The notes: generated from the sequence alone by a model not told the origin. 18,911 nt of DNA from an uncultured archaeon (GCA_964388035.1 CAYLZE010000099.1:1-18911); one strand, 5' to 3'. Counted from the stretch's first letter, positions 737 to 11,022 are shown. Program-made: numbers and translations.

Positions 737-1648
737 TTATCCTAAAAGTTCATGTAACTTATATAAATAAGTGCCAAGCTTACCTCCATAATTACCTGCA
801 GAGATGCGATTAACTCCGGGTACCTTTACGGCAGCTTCAATTCCTATTTTAATTGCTTTTTTGACAGCATCTTCCGTTGCTCCATCCAAAATTACTTCAT
901 AGACGCAATTATCTCCTTGCCTTAGATTCGAATTCTCAATTTTGCTTTTTAATGTAGGACAAAAAGGATCGTTGGTGCTTGCGCCCAAAAAACTATATTT
1001 AGAGCCCACTTTGGAACCAGAACGAGCTACTCCCCCTGGAAAAGGAGCTATGACATTTTCAATTACGCTTATAGCTTCAATTGCTTTTTCTGAAGCAATT
1101 AACCCCGATTCTTGATCCTTGGCAATGATTAAAAAATTACCCCCTGCCACTCCCTTTCCAGCTTTTGCTTCACTTTGGCAAATAAAATCTCCATCCATTA
1201 CGGGAACTTTCCAAGCTTCAAAATTAAATTTTTCTTCGAGTTTTTCTTCAAACTTATCTCCAAAATATCTTAGATTCGCACCTATTTTAATAGCAAAATC
1301 TTTTGCAGGATCTAAGGATTGAGTCAATCCGTCAAAACATGCCGTCGTAGGACATGTTAACACGCATTGACCTAATCGATTCATCACGATGTTTCCCACC
1401 TTTTTCTTATCTCCAATGAAGAACATTAATGCCACTCCCGGTCTTTTATCAGGGGTTTTGTCTGCGGAAAGAAATACATCGATACCTGCTTCAGCATCGC
1501 AATGAATAGTAGATGTTCCATACCCGGTGGCAACTTGCGCTGCAATTTTCGCCCATTTTTCGTTTCTTGCCGTGACTATAATCCGTGAAAAGTAGTTTCC
1601 AAATGCCTCGCAATAAGTATCCTCAATTTCCACTCCATTTAATTCCAT
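737..1648 (-). CDS. ftr: Formylmethanofuran--tetrahydromethanopterin N-formyltransferase
   Basis: N-terminus MELNGVEIEDTYCEAF; motifs TPDKRPG, RLGQCVLTCPTTACFD, GVAGGNF, PFPGGVARSGSKVGS, ISAGNYGGKLG; GGTGGA SD-like motif before the ATG. Confidence 0.97.
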   Translation of the reverse strand: MELNGVEIEDTYCEAFGNYFSRIIVTARNEKWAKIAAQVATGYGTSTIHCDAEAGIDVFLSADKTPDKRPGVALMFFIGDKKKVGNIVMNRLGQCVLTCPTTACFDGLTQSLDPAKDFAIKIGANLRYFGDKFEEKLEEKFNFEAWKVPVMDGDFICQSEAKAGKGVAGGNFLIIAKDQESGLIASEKAIEAISVIENVIAPFPGGVARSGSKVGSKYSFLGASTNDPFCPTLKSKIENSNLRQGDNCVYEVILDGATEDAVKKAIKIGIEAAVKVPGVNRISAGNYGGKLGTYLYKLHELLG

Positions 1649-1808
1649 ATTCCACCATCTAATTATTTTTTTATTTTAATTATTTCTATATCATCTATTT
1701 GTAATATAAGTTTAGATTGCATTTTATTAAAACTTAAAAAAAAATTAAAAATATTAATTATATTAAAAACCTTAAATAGTATAAATTATACAATTTTAGT
1801 TGACTATC

Positions 1809-2648
1809 ATGAGCGAAAGTAAGAAATTAAAAATTGGTGTTCTTAAAAACGGTACGATTGGCAGTTCTCTGTTGCTCGCATTTCTTCTGGATGAGAGAGC
1901 GGAAGGAGAACGAATTGATGTCCGGGAAGTAACATCTGGTCCAAGCATGCATCCTCCAGAAATCTGTGTTAAGGCAATGGAGGAATTATTGGCTTGGAAA
2001 CCCGAATTAATCATAATGTCTTCCCCTAATGCCGCATTAAAAGGACCCAAAGCCGCAAGAGATATGGCAGGAGGTATTCCGACTATTGTGGTATCAGACG
2101 CTCCTGCTAAAAAGGCAATTGATGAATTAAAAGAAAAAAATATGGGCTACATCATCGTGGAATGTGATTCCATGATAGGCGCGCGACGTCCATTTTTGGA
2201 TCCTATTGAAATGAGTCTATTCAATTCAGATTTATTAAAAGTTCTAGCCATTACGGGAGCACTCCAAGTGATTGTTGTAGAACTGAATAAAGTCATAATG
2301 GACATGTTGGATGGAAAAACACCCACTCTTCCACAACTAGAGATAAAAGCAGATAATGCAACGGAAGCTGCAAGTTTTTCTAATCCCTATGCAAGAGCAA
2401 AAGCAATTGCAGCCTTTGAGTTAGCTAGCTCTGTATCAAAAGTGACTGGCAGAGCTTGTTTTGTCTTGAAGGAGAGAGATGAATACATGCCCTTGCTGGC
2501 GGGAGCTCATGAAATGATGAGATATGCTGCCAAAATGTGTGATGATGCCCGGGAAATAGAAAAGTCAAATGATACCGTATTAAGAACTCCTCACCGTTCA
2601 ACCCAAGAACTCTTATCTAAACGGGCTTTATATGATAAAGAGAGTTAA
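1809..2648 (+). CDS. mtd: F420-dependent methylene-H4MPT dehydrogenase
   Basis: KIGVLKNGTIGSS, LLDERAE, SPNAALKGP, DSMIGARRPFLDPIEMSLFNSD, FSNPYARAKAIAA, AHEMMR, AREIEKSNDTVLRTPH match Mtd. ATG at 1809 preferred; TTG at 1800 is the alternative start. Confidence 0.96.
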   Translation: MSESKKLKIGVLKNGTIGSSLLLAFLLDERAEGERIDVREVTSGPSMHPPEICVKAMEELLAWKPELIIMSSPNAALKGPKAARDMAGGIPTIVVSDAPAKKAIDELKEKNMGYIIVECDSMIGARRPFLDPIEMSLFNSDLLKVLAITGALQVIVVELNKVIMDMLDGKTPTLPQLEIKADNATEAASFSNPYARAKAIAAFELASSVSKVTGRACFVLKERDEYMPLLAGAHEMMRYAAKMCDDAREIEKSNDTVLRTPHRSTQELLSKRALYDKES

Positions 2649-2716: not shown

Positions 2717-3691
2717 TTAGGTCCCTCCTTCTTCCAATAGCATCTCGATTGTTTTAAGATTCTGGTTGGAAATCGTTTTGATTACTTCTAAAAGTACTTC
2801 AGGGCTTTTATTTTTTGTTATCGCAAGTAATATTACCCCATTTTTCACTTCTTTAGCGATCACATAGCTTGAATCCGATTCAAACATGATCGTGGAAAGA
2901 TATAATGGAGAGGGGGGAGAATCCATCAATTTAACTATTTTTTCATAAATTTGGTATAAATTCGAATCGGGAGCACTTATTTTGAATGTCATGAATTTAA
3001 GTGGTTCACTATCGAATTTCCCTAAAGTTGAGGAGATCAATAATCCATCGGGTTGATTGAATAATAAATATTCCGAAAGTGTCGTGCTTTTCAATTTATC
3101 AAGGAAGTGCCTAATCTTGCCCATTCTTGCCATGCTCACCGTGCTGTTTGTTATCTCAAAATCTAAAATTTCAATTAACCGATGTTGAGCACTTCCTTCC
3201 TTTACGGAAACAGGAGTAAAGACGACCTTCTTTTTAAAGTCTTCTTCCATATCTTTTATAAGATACTCATATAATTCGTCTTCTTTGGAGTTAGGAAGAT
3301 CTATTTTATTTAAAAGACAATAAACCTTACTCACTTGCGGACTATACTCAAATAGATACTTCACAAAGCTAAAAAATATATTCTTAATTCTTTCTTCAAT
3401 AATGGTAGAATCCACCATGAATACAGCTATTGAGCATTCAGAAAATATTAATTCCCTCTGTGACTCCGAAAAATATCTTTCTATGTAATGAGTTTGGCCC
3501 CCTGCATCCCAAATACTAATTTCACATAGGCCTCTAAAGATATAATTCTCTCTACTAATCCCTTTAGTAGGTTTTAGGTTAATTACCTTCATAAAATTGT
3601 AGCCTAAGCAGGTGGTTCTCATGAGACTAGTCTTTCCCGCATTTTCAGGCCCGAATAAAAGCAGCTTCAATTTTTTAGACCTTTTAATCAA
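2717..3691 (-). CDS. RagA/Gtr1-like small GTPase with probable C-terminal roadblock domain
   Basis: G1 GPENAGKTS, G2 LKPTKG, G3 IWDAGGQ followed by Rag-like YIERYFSESQRELIFS, G4 NKID. C-terminal ~140 aa show a roadblock-like pattern (helix, YLLFNQPDGLLISST, helix, three strands, helix). Confidence 0.85.
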   Translation of the reverse strand: MIKRSKKLKLLLFGPENAGKTSLMRTTCLGYNFMKVINLKPTKGISRENYIFRGLCEISIWDAGGQTHYIERYFSESQRELIFSECSIAVFMVDSTIIEERIKNIFFSFVKYLFEYSPQVSKVYCLLNKIDLPNSKEDELYEYLIKDMEEDFKKKVVFTPVSVKEGSAQHRLIEILDFEITNSTVSMARMGKIRHFLDKLKSTTLSEYLLFNQPDGLLISSTLGKFDSEPLKFMTFKISAPDSNLYQIYEKIVKLMDSPPSPLYLSTIMFESDSSYVIAKEVKNGVILLAITKNKSPEVLLEVIKTISNQNLKTIEMLLEEGGT

Positions 3692-4089
3692 TTTATTGAA
3701 ATTTTATTTTACATTATTAAGAAGAAAAATCTTCTTTTTAAAGTTATTTTATTTGGAATATCTCTGATACTTATTTTATTTTAGTAAAAAATATCCAAAA
3801 TTCATTATTTAATTTTTCCTAAGGATTTGGATTGCTTTCTTTATTAAGAAAACTTGGTATTATTTTAATTTAGGTAAATCCCTTGATCATTTAATTCGTT
3901 CTTTATACTCAGTTAGTTAGATTACATAAAATCGACTTGCTATAGAGACAATCATACCCGATTTAATTTAATATATTAAAAAGCATTTATAGTTTGAAGG
4001 AAGGAAATAGATCATAATTAAATACTCTAAAAAATTTATAGAACTGTACTAATATAAAACAATTTATCTCATGGAAAAAGGATATTAAT

Positions 4090-4617
4090 ATGAATTTAGA
4101 AAAGTACATTAGAAACGTACCCGATTTTCCAAAACCCGGAATTCAATTTAAAGATATTACTACTCTATGCAAGGAGTATAAAGCTTTTAAAGAGTCGTGT
4201 GATCGCATCGTTAAACATTACAAGGGGAAAGGGATTACAAAAGTTGCAGCAATAGAAGCCCGGGGTTATGTTTTTGGCGGAGTGTTAGCTTATCAATTAG
4301 GAGCAGGTTTTGTGCTAATAAGAAAACCGGGGAAGTTACCATATAAAACATTGTCTGAAACTTATGAATTGGAGTATGGAACTGATACCATTGAAATGCA
4401 TGTTGATGCCATTGAAAAAGATGATAAAGTATTATTATTTGATGATCTATTAGCTACGGGAGGAACCGCGGAAGCTGCCTGTAAACTAATTGAAAAAGCA
4501 GCTGGCAAAGTAGTGGGAGTAGCTTTCGTCATTGAATTGACGAGAAGTTTACACGGACGTGATAAGCTTAAAGATTATGAAATTTTTACTTTAGTTGAAA
4601 TTCCTGTAGAAGAATAA
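4090..4617 (+). CDS. apt: Adenine phosphoribosyltransferase
   Basis: IRNVPDFPKPGIQFKDIT, EARG, RKPGKLP, YELEYG, PRPP-binding LLFDDLLATGGT. Confidence 0.97.
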   Translation: MNLEKYIRNVPDFPKPGIQFKDITTLCKEYKAFKESCDRIVKHYKGKGITKVAAIEARGYVFGGVLAYQLGAGFVLIRKPGKLPYKTLSETYELEYGTDTIEMHVDAIEKDDKVLLFDDLLATGGTAEAACKLIEKAAGKVVGVAFVIELTRSLHGRDKLKDYEIFTLVEIPVEE

Positions 4618-4694
4618 AAAATAGAAAAAAAAAGGGAAGTACTAAAATAAAAACTAATATTTTTTTTACTACATTATAGCATGGCGTTGAATTT

Positions 4695-5558
4695 TTAAAT
4701 GATAGCTCCATCAAGTGTATGCTTGCAGGGGCAATCCCGTTCTGTATCTATTTCTGGGATGGTTTTTTCTAACATTGTTTTAAGGTTTTTCTCATTCTTT
4801 TCCATGGTTTCTAAAATTTCGCTAATACTTACTGCTAATTTTTGGACGGGCCCCCCACAGATATCACATTTTTCTTTTAGTTCCACGACACCACAATTTT
4901 TACACGAACCGGCCCATACATCTAAATCAGTTACCATGGCTATGCAACAATAACATATCTCCTTTTCTGCCGCAAGAACAACTTCTGGATATGTCGTCAT
5001 TCCGATAATATCGCCACCCCATGATTTAAACACTTTTGATTCCGCTCGAGTGGAAAATCGCGGACCTTCTATACAAACGTAGGTGCCTCCTTTTTGAATA
5101 TCCAATCCCGCTATAGATTTACTTTTTTCGTAAAATAAATCATTTAAGTATGAGCAATAAGGATCAGCTTGGCTAATATGGCAAACTTGGCCCCCTTCGT
5201 AAAAAGTGTCTATTCGTTTTCTGGTTCTATCAATATATTGATCGACTAAGACGAATTTACCCTTATCGTGTTCCTTTTTTAGAGAACCGACTGCCGAGGG
5301 AGAAATGATGCATTTCACGCCTAACTCCTTTAATGCCCATACATTTGCCCTAAAATTTAACTGATGGGGGGGAATCGTATGACCCCGGCCATGACGGGAT
5401 AAAAAAGCCACTCTCTTGCCCTTAAAATCTCCAATTTGTATAAAGTCAGAGGTTCTTCCATATGGAGTGTAAATTTTAACTTCTTCAGCATTTTCCAGTT
5501 GGATATCGGAGCCTGTCCCCCCAATAATTCCTATACTTGCTTTTCCTTCGAATTTCAT
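4695..5558 (-). CDS. mtnP: S-methyl-5'-thioadenosine phosphorylase (MTAP/PNP family) with inserted Cys4 zinc ribbon
   Basis: IGIIGGTG, TPYG, FLSRHGRGH, NFRANVWALKELG, SAVGSL, YVCIEGPRFSTRAES, IIGMT, VTDLD (D-x-D typical of 6-aminopurine-accepting MTAPs), C-terminal CPC. Confidence 0.93.
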   Translation of the reverse strand: MKFEGKASIGIIGGTGSDIQLENAEEVKIYTPYGRTSDFIQIGDFKGKRVAFLSRHGRGHTIPPHQLNFRANVWALKELGVKCIISPSAVGSLKKEHDKGKFVLVDQYIDRTRKRIDTFYEGGQVCHISQADPYCSYLNDLFYEKSKSIAGLDIQKGGTYVCIEGPRFSTRAESKVFKSWGGDIIGMTTYPEVVLAAEKEICYCCIAMVTDLDVWAGSCKNCGVVELKEKCDICGGPVQKLAVSISEILETMEKNEKNLKTMLEKTIPEIDTERDCPCKHTLDGAII

Positions 5559-5824
5559 GTTTTTACACTTAATGTAGTATTTTTTAAATTATATTTTCTT
5601 TTTATTTTACCTTAATAAAAAACTTTATAGCAATTAATATTTCTACACTAAAATGAAGTTTATAATTAATTTTAATATTAAAGAAATTCTGAAATACTGT
5701 TGTTGTTTTTCGTTAATCATAAACTCTCAATTTATTTCAGATAATCCAAAAATTAATCTTTTTCTAAAGATTAATTTAAATAGAATGACATATATATTTC
5801 CAAAATTTCATAAAACATGCGATC

Positions 5825-7129
5825 ATGACGAAAATTGCATTCTTAGGAAGCTGTAGAGAAGTTGGACGCTCTGGAATTTTGATTACCTCAAATAATGGAA
5901 CGAAATGCGTGTTGGATTACGGGATTAGATTTCATAGTGAAGAGAGGTTACCGCAAGATTTTAATCGAGATAAACTTAAAGCTGTTGCTCTTACTCACGC
6001 TCACGTGGATCATTCGGGAGCTTTACCTTATCTCTATAAGAAAAATAATATTCCTTTCCTAACAAATCCGATTTCCTTAAGAATTGCAGAAATCTTAATT
6101 AAAGATACCTTAAGAATATCTAAGTATAATTATCCTTTTGGATATGAGGAATTAGATAATCTGAGAAAAAATGCAACTTTTTTGAACGAACGGGTAAGGC
6201 AGAGAATTGAGGATGATTTTTATATCACCTTCTTTAATGCAGGGCATATTCCTGGTAGCGTCTCCATTCTGGTAGAAGTCGATGATAAAGTTATCCTTTA
6301 TTCGGGGGATATTAACACCCAAAATACAAATTTATGCACATCCGCCGAAGCAAGAGACTTTCCCCCAATTGACGCTCTTATCATTGAATCGACCTATGCT
6401 CTACGAAATCATCCTCCAAGAGAAACATTGGAGAAAGACTTTGTAGAGAAAATAATCGATATTATTAGCAACGGTGGACGAGTACTAATTCCTGCTTTTG
6501 CAGTCGCACGATCTCAAGAAGTATTACTGATTTTGAACAAATATTTTTATAAAGAGAAAATATATATTGATGGATTGGCCAGAAAGATAAGCAATAAATA
6601 TCTAAACCATCCAGAAGCGATAAAAGATTTTAAGGTCTATAAAAAGGCATTGAAAAAAGCTAAATACGTGTCAAGAAGCACGGAAAGAAACTCAATCAAG
6701 AAGAGGAATGCAGTATTTATTGCTTCGAGTGGAATGCTAAAGGGTGGTGCTGTGATGGAATACATGGGATCCATCTTAAAAGACCCAATGTCGGCAATCT
6801 ATATTGTAGGATATCAAGTAGAAGGAAGTCCCGGAAGAGTCTTATTAGATACGGGAGTATTTGAATTTAACAATAACGGAAAAACTGAGGAACGGAATAG
6901 TCTTGAAAAAATACAGGCTGAATGTGAATACGAGTATTTCGATTTCTCAAGTCATGCAGATGCGAACAATTTGCAGCAATATGTAAAAGATTTACAGTTT
7001 CGTAATGGTGCCAAAGAGGTATTCTGTGTTCACGGGGATGAGAAATCCACGACCAATTTAGCTAGTGTTTTGAGTAAAGATGGATTTAATTCAGTAGCAC
7101 CTGAGACAGGAGAAGAATACCGCATTTAA
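5825..7129 (+). CDS. Metallo-beta-lactamase beta-CASP ribonuclease without KH domains (aCPSF2-like)
   Basis: LGSCREVGRS, THAHVDHSG, AGHIPGS, YSGD, ESTY, PAFAVARSQE, SGMLKGG, GYQVEGSPGR, FSSHAD, VHGD. 434 aa with no N-terminal KH extension, so not aCPSF1/FttA. Confidence 0.9.
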   Translation: MTKIAFLGSCREVGRSGILITSNNGTKCVLDYGIRFHSEERLPQDFNRDKLKAVALTHAHVDHSGALPYLYKKNNIPFLTNPISLRIAEILIKDTLRISKYNYPFGYEELDNLRKNATFLNERVRQRIEDDFYITFFNAGHIPGSVSILVEVDDKVILYSGDINTQNTNLCTSAEARDFPPIDALIIESTYALRNHPPRETLEKDFVEKIIDIISNGGRVLIPAFAVARSQEVLLILNKYFYKEKIYIDGLARKISNKYLNHPEAIKDFKVYKKALKKAKYVSRSTERNSIKKRNAVFIASSGMLKGGAVMEYMGSILKDPMSAIYIVGYQVEGSPGRVLLDTGVFEFNNNGKTEERNSLEKIQAECEYEYFDFSSHADANNLQQYVKDLQFRNGAKEVFCVHGDEKSTTNLASVLSKDGFNSVAPETGEEYRI

Positions 7130-8877: not shown

Positions 8878-9873
8878 ATGGAAGAAGTAAAAATCAATGA
8901 ATTAGCCCTAAACCTCGTTAAAGGTATAATGGTCAACCCTATCCATTATGGTGCTAAAATTATTAAATTAAATTCGGGTGCAACTGTCATAGATATGACT
9001 AATGCGGGTTGGAAGGGAGGAAAGCTAGTGGGTGAGATTTGCATGGGGGGATTAGGAAATGTAGAATTTACATCATATAAATTAGACGAACATTATCTTC
9101 CTGCCGTGAACGTCTATACCTCTCATCCCGTTATTTCCTGCATGGCGTCACAATTGGCAGGATGGAGTGTAAAACTTAAAAAAGATGTCGAAAAAGATGG
9201 AAAAGTTAAGAATAAAGTAGTTTTCCAATCTTTAGGCTCTGGACCTGCTCGAGCTAAGGCAAGAAAGGAAAAATTGTTTGAGGAATTAACGTACGTGGAT
9301 AGTTCAAATTGTGCCGTTATAGTATTCGAAACCAGACAAATGCCTGATGAAGAAGTCATGCAAATAGTTACAGAAAAGTGTAATGTAGCTCCTGAAAATA
9401 CCTATGCAGTTTGTGCTCCTACGGCATGTTTGACCGGGTCAATTCAAGTTGCTGCCCGAATTGTTGAAACGGGTATTCATAAACTTCATGAAATTCATTT
9501 TCCTCTTGAAGTTTTAAAAGAGGGATTTGGTACCACCACGATTGCTCCAATTGCCAAGGATGATTTTGCTGCCATGGGTACGACAAATGATTCCATCATC
9601 GCTGCAGGTTCGACTTTTTATATTATCAACGTTGATAAGGAAAAAGAACAAGAGATATTTGAATTGCTGAAAAAAGCACCCTCTAACCAATCCCCGAGTT
9701 ATGGAAAACCATTTAACGTTATCTTCAAGGAAGCGGAGTATGATTTCTATAAAATTGATCCTGGATTATTTGCTCCCGCAACTTATACTATAAACAACAT
9801 GAAAACGGGAAAATCTATAACCGTGGGAAAGCTAAACCATGAATTATTGAAAAATTCTTATGGATTCAATTAA
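8878..9873 (+). CDS. mch: Methenyl-H4MPT cyclohydrolase
   Basis: GATVID, EICMGGLG, CMASQLAGW, GSGPARA, APTACLTGSIQVAARIVETGIHK, AMGTTND, DFYKIDPGLFAPA; GGTGA SD motif 4 nt before the ATG. Confidence 0.97.
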   Translation: MEEVKINELALNLVKGIMVNPIHYGAKIIKLNSGATVIDMTNAGWKGGKLVGEICMGGLGNVEFTSYKLDEHYLPAVNVYTSHPVISCMASQLAGWSVKLKKDVEKDGKVKNKVVFQSLGSGPARAKARKEKLFEELTYVDSSNCAVIVFETRQMPDEEVMQIVTEKCNVAPENTYAVCAPTACLTGSIQVAARIVETGIHKLHEIHFPLEVLKEGFGTTTIAPIAKDDFAAMGTTNDSIIAAGSTFYIINVDKEKEQEIFELLKKAPSNQSPSYGKPFNVIFKEAEYDFYKIDPGLFAPATYTINNMKTGKSITVGKLNHELLKNSYGFN

Positions 9874-9936: not shown

Positions 9937-11022
9937 TTAGATATTTGTCAATTCATCTTGATATTTTAAAATCTCCGTGATTGGGATGTCTCTATCAAAT
10001 TCAATATTCATTTGAATTCCTAAATAAGCACATGCTAATTTTGCAGCTGCGGCGATTTCGGCTTTCTTTAAAGTAACTGAATACTCATCGCCAGAAGGTT
10101 CATTATTCTGACCGATATCTTGATTTATATAACTCTTATTAACGGAACCTCCTTGAGTTGTATTTTTAAATTTATTTTCTTGCACTTGAATTGCTCTTTC
10201 TGATTTCATTTTAGAAAGAAGCGATGCCATTTTATCTGCGACGTTAAAAGGCAATTGATTTTTAGTCACAACTCTGATGATATTATTCACATCGAAATAA
10301 TTTAATGTTTTATATTTAGCACGTAAGAAACCTTTGAGATTCTCAGAATCCTTTTCACACTCAATTTGGATCCAATCATGAATCGCTAAGCCACGCCTAA
10401 AAAAGATTAATTCCCAATCAATTCCTAATTCTTTTAAGAATTTTAGAAAATTATCATCTTCTTGTTCTCGAGAAGCGATAATTAGATAAAGCTGAAGTCC
10501 ATAATATTTATGTTCTTGTTGTAGAAATAAACCCCTTTGCTGCATTGAGGCTAATATTTTCAATTTAATAGATAAGATATTCTCAGAAACACTTTCCCTG
10601 CCACAATTTAAATAAATTACGTTCCCTTCCTCGTTAATATATTTGGCATTTAAAAAACCTAAGATACTTTCATTATTTTCTTCAACAAATTCCATTAAAC
10701 CGCTCAATGTGGGAGTTACATCAAACTTAATTAAATCGCTTTTTTCGATAGTCACATAATCTGATATACCTCCCCCAATCGCTAACTTTATTGTCTTTAA
10801 TTTAAGTTCTTTATCAATACCAAACAGCTTTTTGATACTTTCATTAATTGGGAATACTTCCTCCTCCAAGATCTTAAGATCTGCAATAGTTATCTCATAG
10901 GGATCTGGAATTTTGGTCAATTTATTAATGATAGGTGCTTCCGAGGCATCTACCTCTACTTCATAGGGTTTGGATAAATCTTTACGAATGATACAATAAA
11001 ATCTATCCTTTTTCTTATACAT
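9937..11022 (-). CDS. Hypothetical soluble protein (361 aa; possibly 391 aa from ATT at 11112)
   Basis: Long ORF in AT-rich DNA with globular composition; no family recognised. Frame stays open upstream to 11148. Confidence 0.75.
   Translation of the reverse strand: MYKKKDRFYCIIRKDLSKPYEVEVDASEAPIINKLTKIPDPYEITIADLKILEEEVFPINESIKKLFGIDKELKLKTIKLAIGGGISDYVTIEKSDLIKFDVTPTLSGLMEFVEENNESILGFLNAKYINEEGNVIYLNCGRESVSENILSIKLKILASMQQRGLFLQQEHKYYGLQLYLIIASREQEDDNFLKFLKELGIDWELIFFRRGLAIHDWIQIECEKDSENLKGFLRAKYKTLNYFDVNNIIRVVTKNQLPFNVADKMASLLSKMKSERAIQVQENKFKNTTQGGSVNKSYINQDIGQNNEPSGDEYSVTLKKAEIAAAAKLACAYLGIQMNIEFDRDIPITEILKYQDELTNI

Follow-up and report, generated by a model that had tools for sequence, protein, structure and literature searches.

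A Lokiarchaeal methylthioadenosine phosphorylase with a predicted Cys4 metal-binding ribbon in its gate loop

The window, by which we mean the whole stretch of 18,911 nucleotides from an uncultured archaeon, encodes an S-methyl-5'-thioadenosine phosphorylase (MTAP) at positions 4695..5558 on the minus strand. We identified the gene from its open reading frame, its matches to PF01048 and TIGR01694, and its similarity to solved structures; the product, P0001, has 287 amino acids, followed by a stop codon. The gene lies tail-to-tail with apt, an adenine phosphoribosyltransferase-like gene (4090..4617, plus strand; PF00156) whose product carries out the next step of adenine salvage after MTAP, and the two genes sit between those for a Rag/Gtr1-like GTPase (2717-3691) and a beta-CASP nuclease (5825-7129). 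Much of this arrangement recurs among 37 related loci (L002-L038): apt adjoins the insert-bearing MTAP described below in 21 of them (22 of 38 if the window's own locus is included), a beta-CASP gene is beside MTAP in 33, and the order Rag-like GTPase, apt, MTAP is found in about 19 (window positions 2717-7129). Genes for H4MPT-dependent one-carbon metabolism (Ftr, Mtd, and Mch) are also present around the MTAP locus, at 737-1648 (minus strand), 1800-2648 (plus strand), and 8878-9873 (plus strand); scattered genes of this pathway are typical of the Wood-Ljungdahl metabolism of Lokiarchaea. An open reading frame of 361 amino acids at 9937-11022 (minus strand) has no Pfam match at an E value of 0.001 or better.

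The unusual feature of P0001 is found directly C-terminal of M-V-T-D-L-D-V-W (residues 208-215). This stretch includes the TDxD base-binding motif (T210-D211-L212-D213; 4920..4931, minus strand), which aligns to the TDYD of solved MTAPs and precedes the gate loop. After T-D-L-D, the protein reads AGS-CKNC-GVVELKEK-CDIC-GGPVQKL, with the pattern C-x2-C-x8-C-x2-C. We delimit the inserted module to residues 217-241 (GSCKNCGVVELKEKCDICGGPVQKL; 4836..4910, minus strand), and its core, C219-x2-C222-x8-C231-x2-C234 (4857..4904, minus strand), consists of two CxxCG knuckles, as seen both in the translation and in the alignment of orthologs. On the minus strand, 4836-4913 translates to AGSCKNCGVVELKEKCDICGGPVQKL and 4857-4904 to CKNCGVVELKEKCDIC. 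The first-pass annotation of this DNA had described an in-frame Cys4 module right after the base-binding motif, and the translation agrees: the module takes the place of a loop of 4-6 residues, for a net gain of about 22 residues. An antisense open reading frame of 84 amino acids (4699-4953, plus strand) runs opposite the MTAP gene and spans the insert; since the conserved frame is that of MTAP, this one is most likely spurious.

Apart from the insert, P0001 is a normal MTAP: its family score, catalytic residues, predicted fold, and predicted trimer are all canonical. It matches Pfam PF01048 (PNP_UDP_1) with an E value of 4e-36 (125 bits versus a cut-off of 25.1) and scores 292.4 bits against the NCBIfam equivalog model for MTAP (TIGR01694), which is above the cut-off of 274.85. 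Its score against the archaeal MTAP model NF006334 is below the cut-off (326 versus 382), because the insert splits the match. The nearest solved structures are archaeal MTAPs (1v4n, 2a8y/3t94, and 1wta; E values of 1e-74 to 1e-76), and human MTAP is found with an E value of 1e-62. P0001 is 45-46% identical to 1v4n and 3t94, and an AF2 model superposes on these structures with TM scores of 0.84-0.86. The model, which was built from an alignment of 90 MTAP sequences, has the NP-I fold (mean pLDDT 92.3, pTM 0.90). In the same alignment, R55, H56, F168, and M187 are invariant, and S169, T188, D211, and D213 are nearly so and match the corresponding residues of solved MTAPs. P0001 thus has the full set of phosphate-, ribose-, and base-binding residues (R-H, F-S, M-T, and D-x-D), and D211 and D213 are invariant among 143 orthologs that carry the insert.

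When we modeled P0001 as a homotrimer with zinc, the ipSAE was 0.93, as compared to 0.02 for the best control. The mark that we used for such models was reached by 20 of 30 solved pairs and by 1 of 23 single chains. The contacts agreed at the level of at least 97% across runs, and the pLDDT of the partner chains was at least 90. The high score is probably due to the likeness of P0001 to solved MTAP trimers; it shows that the canonical interface is kept, and nothing beyond that. Among the residues that the trimer model names at the interface are V214 and none of residues 216-241, and the status of residues it does not name is uncertain. A role for the ribbon in the trimer interface is rejected on these grounds, if weakly.

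The MTAPs of Sulfolobus and Aeropyrum (SsMTAPII of Sulfolobus solfataricus, 2a8y/3t94; Sulfolobus tokodaii, 1v4n; Aeropyrum pernix, 1wta) have the same phosphate, ribose, and base residues as P0001. The C135/C202 pair of P0001 aligns to C138/C205 of SsMTAPII, and the C-terminal CXC motif and the NP-I trimer interface are common to both proteins. The third cysteine of the CSCC motif and its partner C200 are missing from P0001. The clear difference is at the gate loop, which has 2-6 residues in these enzymes, as opposed to a segment of 27 residues with a Cys4 ribbon in the Lokiarchaeal enzyme. A separate C-terminal CPC motif had also been pointed out, and it is indeed present (C276-P-C278; 4725..4733, minus strand), where it aligns to the CSC of Sulfolobus MTAPs. 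It is not new, however: the CXC disulfide motif of SsMTAPII and its role in thermostability have been published (PMC3787623). C276 and C278 are nearly invariant in the MTAPs of Asgard archaea, with or without the insert. The CPC motif is a known trait of the archaeal family and lies outside the novelty of this protein.

The function of the loop in which the insert lies is best described for the MTAP of Schistosoma mansoni (SmMTAP), whose gate loop (residues 231-242) comes right after the base-binding residues D230 and D232 (PMC5147791). This loop is open or disordered without ligand and shuts upon base binding; in some structures, a disulfide between C233 and C242 holds it open (PMC5147791). 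The gate loop of human MTAP is less plastic, and gate-loop dynamics have been proposed as the basis of the adenosine activity of SmMTAP (PMC5147791). D211 and D213 of P0001 correspond to D230 and D232 of SmMTAP, and therefore the ribbon (residues 219-234) lies in the middle of the gate loop. The description of this segment as a substrate-gating loop thus holds for the MTAP family. The two proteins share the site, and SmMTAP also has cysteine chemistry in the gate loop (C233-C242), but its loop has 12 residues, is metal-free, and is often disordered, while the prediction for the Lokiarchaeal loop is an ordered mini-domain that binds metal.

We compared this segment across MTAPs. For all 13 distinct sequences of solved MTAPs, none of which has the insert, the alignment to P0001 breaks off at residues 216-220; for S. 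tokodaii MTAP (1v4n), it restarts at residue 242, so that 2 residues face 25. At the place that holds 27 residues in P0001, solved MTAPs and those of other Asgard archaea have 4-6. The Asgard proteins with such a short loop include the MTAPs from two families of the same class (f31 and f32) and from all other Asgard lineages that we sampled, which are around 50-57% identical to P0001 and read, for example, T-D-x-D-V-Y-G-x-x-P-V; their alignments to P0001 end at residues 215-217. A 209-residue fragment from a representative library (P0145) comes from an unrelated MTAP in which about 25 residues without any cysteine are inserted at this site of the gate loop (CWKSQNYASLGQDIGRNSDDAQGSQRSLTEHNV...), which suggests that insertions there may be tolerated in more than one lineage. 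A literature search returned nothing relevant on an MTAP with a zinc ribbon or on Asgard MTAPs, and public annotations label the insert-bearing proteins as plain MTAP. The variant appears to be undescribed, as had been supposed.

The insert is strongly conserved in the proteins that have it. The four cysteines are invariant in 143 non-redundant orthologs (59-86% identity to P0001), so we rejected the idea that the insert arose by chance or is an oddity of a single genome. All of the 120 closest proteins in the database (68-86% identity) carry C-x2-C-G-[IV]-V-E-x4-C-x2-C-G in the same place, and wherever their source is named, it is Promethearchaeota or Lokiarchaeota. Across the 143 orthologs, G223, V225, E226, K240, and L241 are near-invariant, and the protein has some of its most variable positions at 218, 220, 227-230, 232, 233, 237, and 239 (2.1-2.8 bits). 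Judging from the alignment, fixed cysteines with ten variable positions between them are what one expects of a structural knuckle whose surface is free to vary. Members of family f2 have an extra (fifth) cysteine at position 217 (W-A-C-E-C). A few divergent or degenerate ribbons are found in deeper branches, where they are rare. In L076 (G296:C36; CKKCGIVPFGHCCDAGD), the ribbon reads C-K-K-C...H-C-C, with the second knuckle reduced to CC, and in P0125 (CVKCKSVVELPGPCPCGG) it reads C-x2-C...C-P-C; L077 (G026) and P0123 have a first hairpin that is one residue longer. Since the degenerate forms in L076 and P0125 exist, the canonical geometry is not absolutely required.

The insert is restricted to one clade inside the class Lokiarchaeia. 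Whole-genome searches found it in families f1-f4, which belong to the window's own order, and in f30, which is of the same class; it was not found in f31 and f32 or in the approximately 150 genomes of other Asgard lineages that we searched. With the C-terminal 98 amino acids of P0001 as the query against 1.84 billion cluster representatives, the insert was found in only one full-length cluster (at 50% identity) and in five fragment clusters. Given these few clusters, and the short loop in other Asgard classes and in f31 and f32, the possibility that the insert is widespread across MTAPs is rejected. For a maximum-likelihood tree of MTAPs, we first removed the insert columns. A single branch of this tree separates the 34 insert-bearing rows from all the others, with an SH-aLRT of 92, which is not decisive, and therefore a single gain is the simplest history. 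The tree would thus place this one gain inside the class Lokiarchaeia. The closest insert-less MTAP is L037 (G092:C75:495-1280), which is 60% identical over residues 4-217 and has the loop ADKP. It is from another Asgard family (f18) and from a genome with 11% contamination, and the tree leaves its placement beside the insert clade unsettled.

The predicted structure of the insert is a small beta-ribbon. Within the AF2 model of P0001, the insert has a pLDDT of 94-95 and forms beta-hairpins (strands 216-219, 223-226, and 237-240); predicted in isolation from 117 orthologous segments, it is again a beta-ribbon, with a pLDDT of 85. Two CxxC(G) knuckles on beta-hairpins define a Cys4 zinc ribbon or zinc knuckle of the CPxCG type. 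The insert has both knuckles, on predicted strands, and C-x2-C-G ... C-x2-C-G is invariant among the 143 orthologs. In profile and structure searches, the solved proteins that matched the insert were Cys4 knuckles only. A shape search of the ESM Atlas with the whole P0001 model returned only generic bacterial MTAP clusters.

The first-pass annotation had compared the insert to the zinc ribbons of Nop10 and Spt4. Part of the comparison to Nop10 stands. The Nop10 of Methanocaldococcus jannaschii has the same C-x2-C-x8-C-x2-C spacing and aligns without gaps (K-C-P-K-C-G-L-Y-T-L-K-E-I-C-P-K-C-G), and archaeal Nop10 (2aus, 2ey4, 2hvy, and 2apo) ranks first for the isolated insert in both VIA-align (Z of 4.0 and rmsd of 2.6 Å, with 34 residues aligned) and Foldseek (E value of 0.2 and rmsd of 0.5-0.6 Å over 24 columns). 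However, the likeness is weak and non-specific. The match of the insert profile to M. jannaschii Nop10 (E value of 0.005) is on a par with that to an unrelated zinc-ribbon protein of the archaeal ribosome (0.004). The runners-up in VIA-align are within one Z unit of Nop10 (3.7 for aIF2-gamma, 3.3 for MCM, and 3.2 for PolD), and the tool itself cautions that a Z below 8 may stem from a widespread arrangement. Against the Pfam model for Nop10p (PF04135), the insert scores 16.9 bits, as compared to a cut-off of 27.2, and matches only positions 7-28 of 52. The 117 orthologous inserts match 101 zinc-ribbon families, and the 25 families that they match most often do not include Nop10p. The linker and C-terminal helix of Nop10, which is the half that binds Cbf5, are missing from the insert, as the chain re-enters the MTAP helix after residue 241. 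The Nop10 encoded by the same genome (L059:1501-1707) has the spacing C-x2-C-x11-C-x2-C, so that a gap is needed to align it with the insert, and it was missing from the 15 best matches of the insert profile within this genome. The shared 'LKE' was not borne out as a sign of kinship: it corresponds to positions 227-229, which vary freely among the 143 orthologs and are among the most variable of the insert, and therefore the match is coincidental. For Spt4, the matches are marginal (E value of 1.5 in a profile search against the PDB; rank 47 in Foldseek with an E value of 2.0). Given the sub-threshold scores, the ties with many knuckle families, the variable 'LKE', and the x11 spacing of the genome's own Nop10, we rejected descent from Nop10 or Spt4 as unsupported. 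Because the likeness to Nop10 is weak and tied, we consider the module to be a generic Cys4 knuckle of the CPxCG type. It shares a fold class with the Nop10 ribbon, and nothing that we found points to common descent or a common function.

Two other matches illustrate Cys4 elements in globular enzymes. The zinc knuckle in the G domain of aIF2-gamma (1s0u and 1kk0) is the second-best structural match of the insert (Z of 3.7; Foldseek rmsd of 0.7 Å over 27 columns) and is also a short Cys4 knuckle that is inserted in a loop of a globular enzyme domain, although the host protein differs and no sequence relationship is shown. The Cys4-zinc LID of adenylate kinase (e.g., 1zin) matches with Foldseek E values of 1-2. 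Its Cys4 metal site lies in a mobile segment that shuts over the substrate and has a structural, not a catalytic, role. The knuckles of the LID are spaced further apart, and adenylate kinase belongs to another enzyme family; this is an analogy only.

Several relatives encode a second MTAP paralog of about 250 amino acids, head to head with the insert-bearing form. It has a short loop like that of human MTAP (T-D-Y-D-C-W-K-E-D-E) and no C-terminal CXC (L013:616-1374, L017:2454-3212, L028:619-1395, L029:2463-3212, L030:621-1367, L031:630-1376, and L034:633-1379). Genomes of genus g11 have mostly the short-loop paralog only, with the insert region matched in 7 of 50 genomes. The short-loop paralog was not found in the window's own genome, which keeps the insert form only. 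Across the class, 132 of 138 genomes have a match to the MTAP family, with the proviso that the query would also catch other genes of the PNP family. That almost every genome has one MTAP form or the other fits with both being working housekeeping MTAPs, and would fit with the two forms being interchangeable in that role.

How might the insert affect the enzyme? From the sequence, P0001 should be a catalytically competent, trimer-forming MTAP in which a small beta-ribbon with a Cys4 metal site has taken the place of the gate loop, which runs from the base-binding aspartate pair to the C-terminal helix lining the 5'-alkylthio pocket. Zinc is the likeliest metal, with iron as an alternative in these anaerobes. 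We infer the binding of metal, the rigidification of the loop, and any effect on gating from the sequence and the models. Our preferred reading, in which we have about even confidence, is that the insert is a structural metal ribbon that turns a flexible gate loop into a rigid lid. Strong purifying selection would act on the metal ligands and on the residues that pack the ribbon against the body of the enzyme, and a short, flexible, often disordered gate would have become a rigid lid, stapled by metal, at the active-site mouth. Fixing the geometry of the loop could affect stability, substrate access, or selectivity for the 5'-substituent; on this reading, the ribbon would not serve to bind RNA or protein. 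The Cys4-zinc lid of Gram-positive adenylate kinases would be a comparable case. We prefer the structural lid because the ligands and the packing residues are fixed while the surface is free, because the catalytic residues are intact, and because the insert form appears to be redundant with the short-loop paralog. On the other hand, the acidic E226 and the basic K240, which are near-invariant, could mark a functional contact rather than packing. Furthermore, a structural staple alone does not explain why a working ancestral short loop was replaced and the insert then strictly kept.

Four other readings partly overlap with the structural lid. The ribbon could be a redox or metal switch, in which oxidation or loss of the metal unfolds the ribbon and alters closure of the gate, so that the salvage of MTA and adenine is tied to the redox or zinc status of a strict anaerobe. 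Cys4-zinc sites are known to act as redox switches in Hsp33 and RsrA. The invariant cysteines are in the gate loop, with one more at position 217 in family f2, and the gate of SmMTAP can be locked open by a disulfide within this loop (C233-C242; PMC5147791). Yet what speaks for a switch here is position alone, most Cys4 ribbons that are inserted in archaeal enzymes are structural, and the C-terminal CXC and C135/C202 already supply redox-active cysteines without the insert, so we consider a switch to be unlikely. We hold a similarly low opinion of the idea that the enlarged lid determines specificity by reshaping the pocket for the 5'-substituent or the purine, with a preference for 5'-deoxyadenosine, methylthioinosine, or adenosine and a division of labor with the short-loop paralog. 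The insert does end four residues ahead of the helix start V243-I245-I248-L249, which aligns to V233/V236/L237 of human MTAP, presumably residues of its 5'-alkylthio pocket. Also, the two paralogs are head to head in several genomes, and the proposed link between gate-loop dynamics and adenosine activity in SmMTAP (PMC5147791) points in the same direction. Against this, D211 and D213, which specify the base, and the ribose and phosphate residues are unchanged, and many genomes, including this one, have the insert form only. As the sole MTAP in those genomes, the insert form must cover the housekeeping role there.

Two further readings give the outer face of the ribbon a role in binding, and we rate each of them as quite improbable. 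In one, the ribbon is a docking surface that recruits a protein or RNA, such as APRT, MTR-1-P isomerase, or the Rag/Gtr1-like GTPase, for channelling or signalling (moonlighting). The ribbon is predicted to be outside of the trimer interface and may be exposed, its top look-alike is Nop10, and the gene order described above recurs. But the ribbon's exposed residues rank with the most variable ones of the whole protein, unlike a conserved interface; membership in the Nop10 family fails, with a variable 'LKE' and a likeness that is tied with many unrelated knuckles; and gene neighbourhood by itself is weak evidence. In the other, the ribbons mediate or block contacts between trimers, as in the hexamers of SsMTAPII and PfMTAP, or in higher assemblies. 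Related archaeal MTAPs are hexamers (PMC5738077), and E226, K240, and L241 are conserved. If, as the trimer model suggests, the ribbon is not used within the trimer, it would be free for other contacts. The variable surface speaks against a fixed interface, however, and the relatives from S. tokodaii and A. pernix are listed as trimers. Considered more broadly, the ribbon might be a regulatory handle on the gate loop, either as a switch that is sensitive to redox or metal or as a site where the syntenic Rag/Gtr1-like GTPase, or some other partner, docks. This is the long shot among our readings. If it were true, then sensing of a by-product of SAM, by way of MTA and adenine salvage, would be linked to signalling in the archaeal lineage that is closest to eukaryotes.

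In MTAPs and PNPs, the gate loop governs the access of substrate, and inhibitors are designed against it. To our knowledge, there is no earlier description of a natural MTAP whose gate loop holds a folded metal-binding module. As the insert is fixed across most cultured and uncultured Lokiarchaeia, these enzymes would offer a clean natural experiment on loop rigidification, and the insert is a simple clade marker for Lokiarchaeal MTAP. If the ribbon is only structural, then it is one more case of the common insertion of zinc knuckles into archaeal enzymes, in this instance strictly conserved and on a mobile loop that is important for function. If it is instead a regulatory or docking site, it would be an Asgard-specific control point in the salvage of methionine and adenine.
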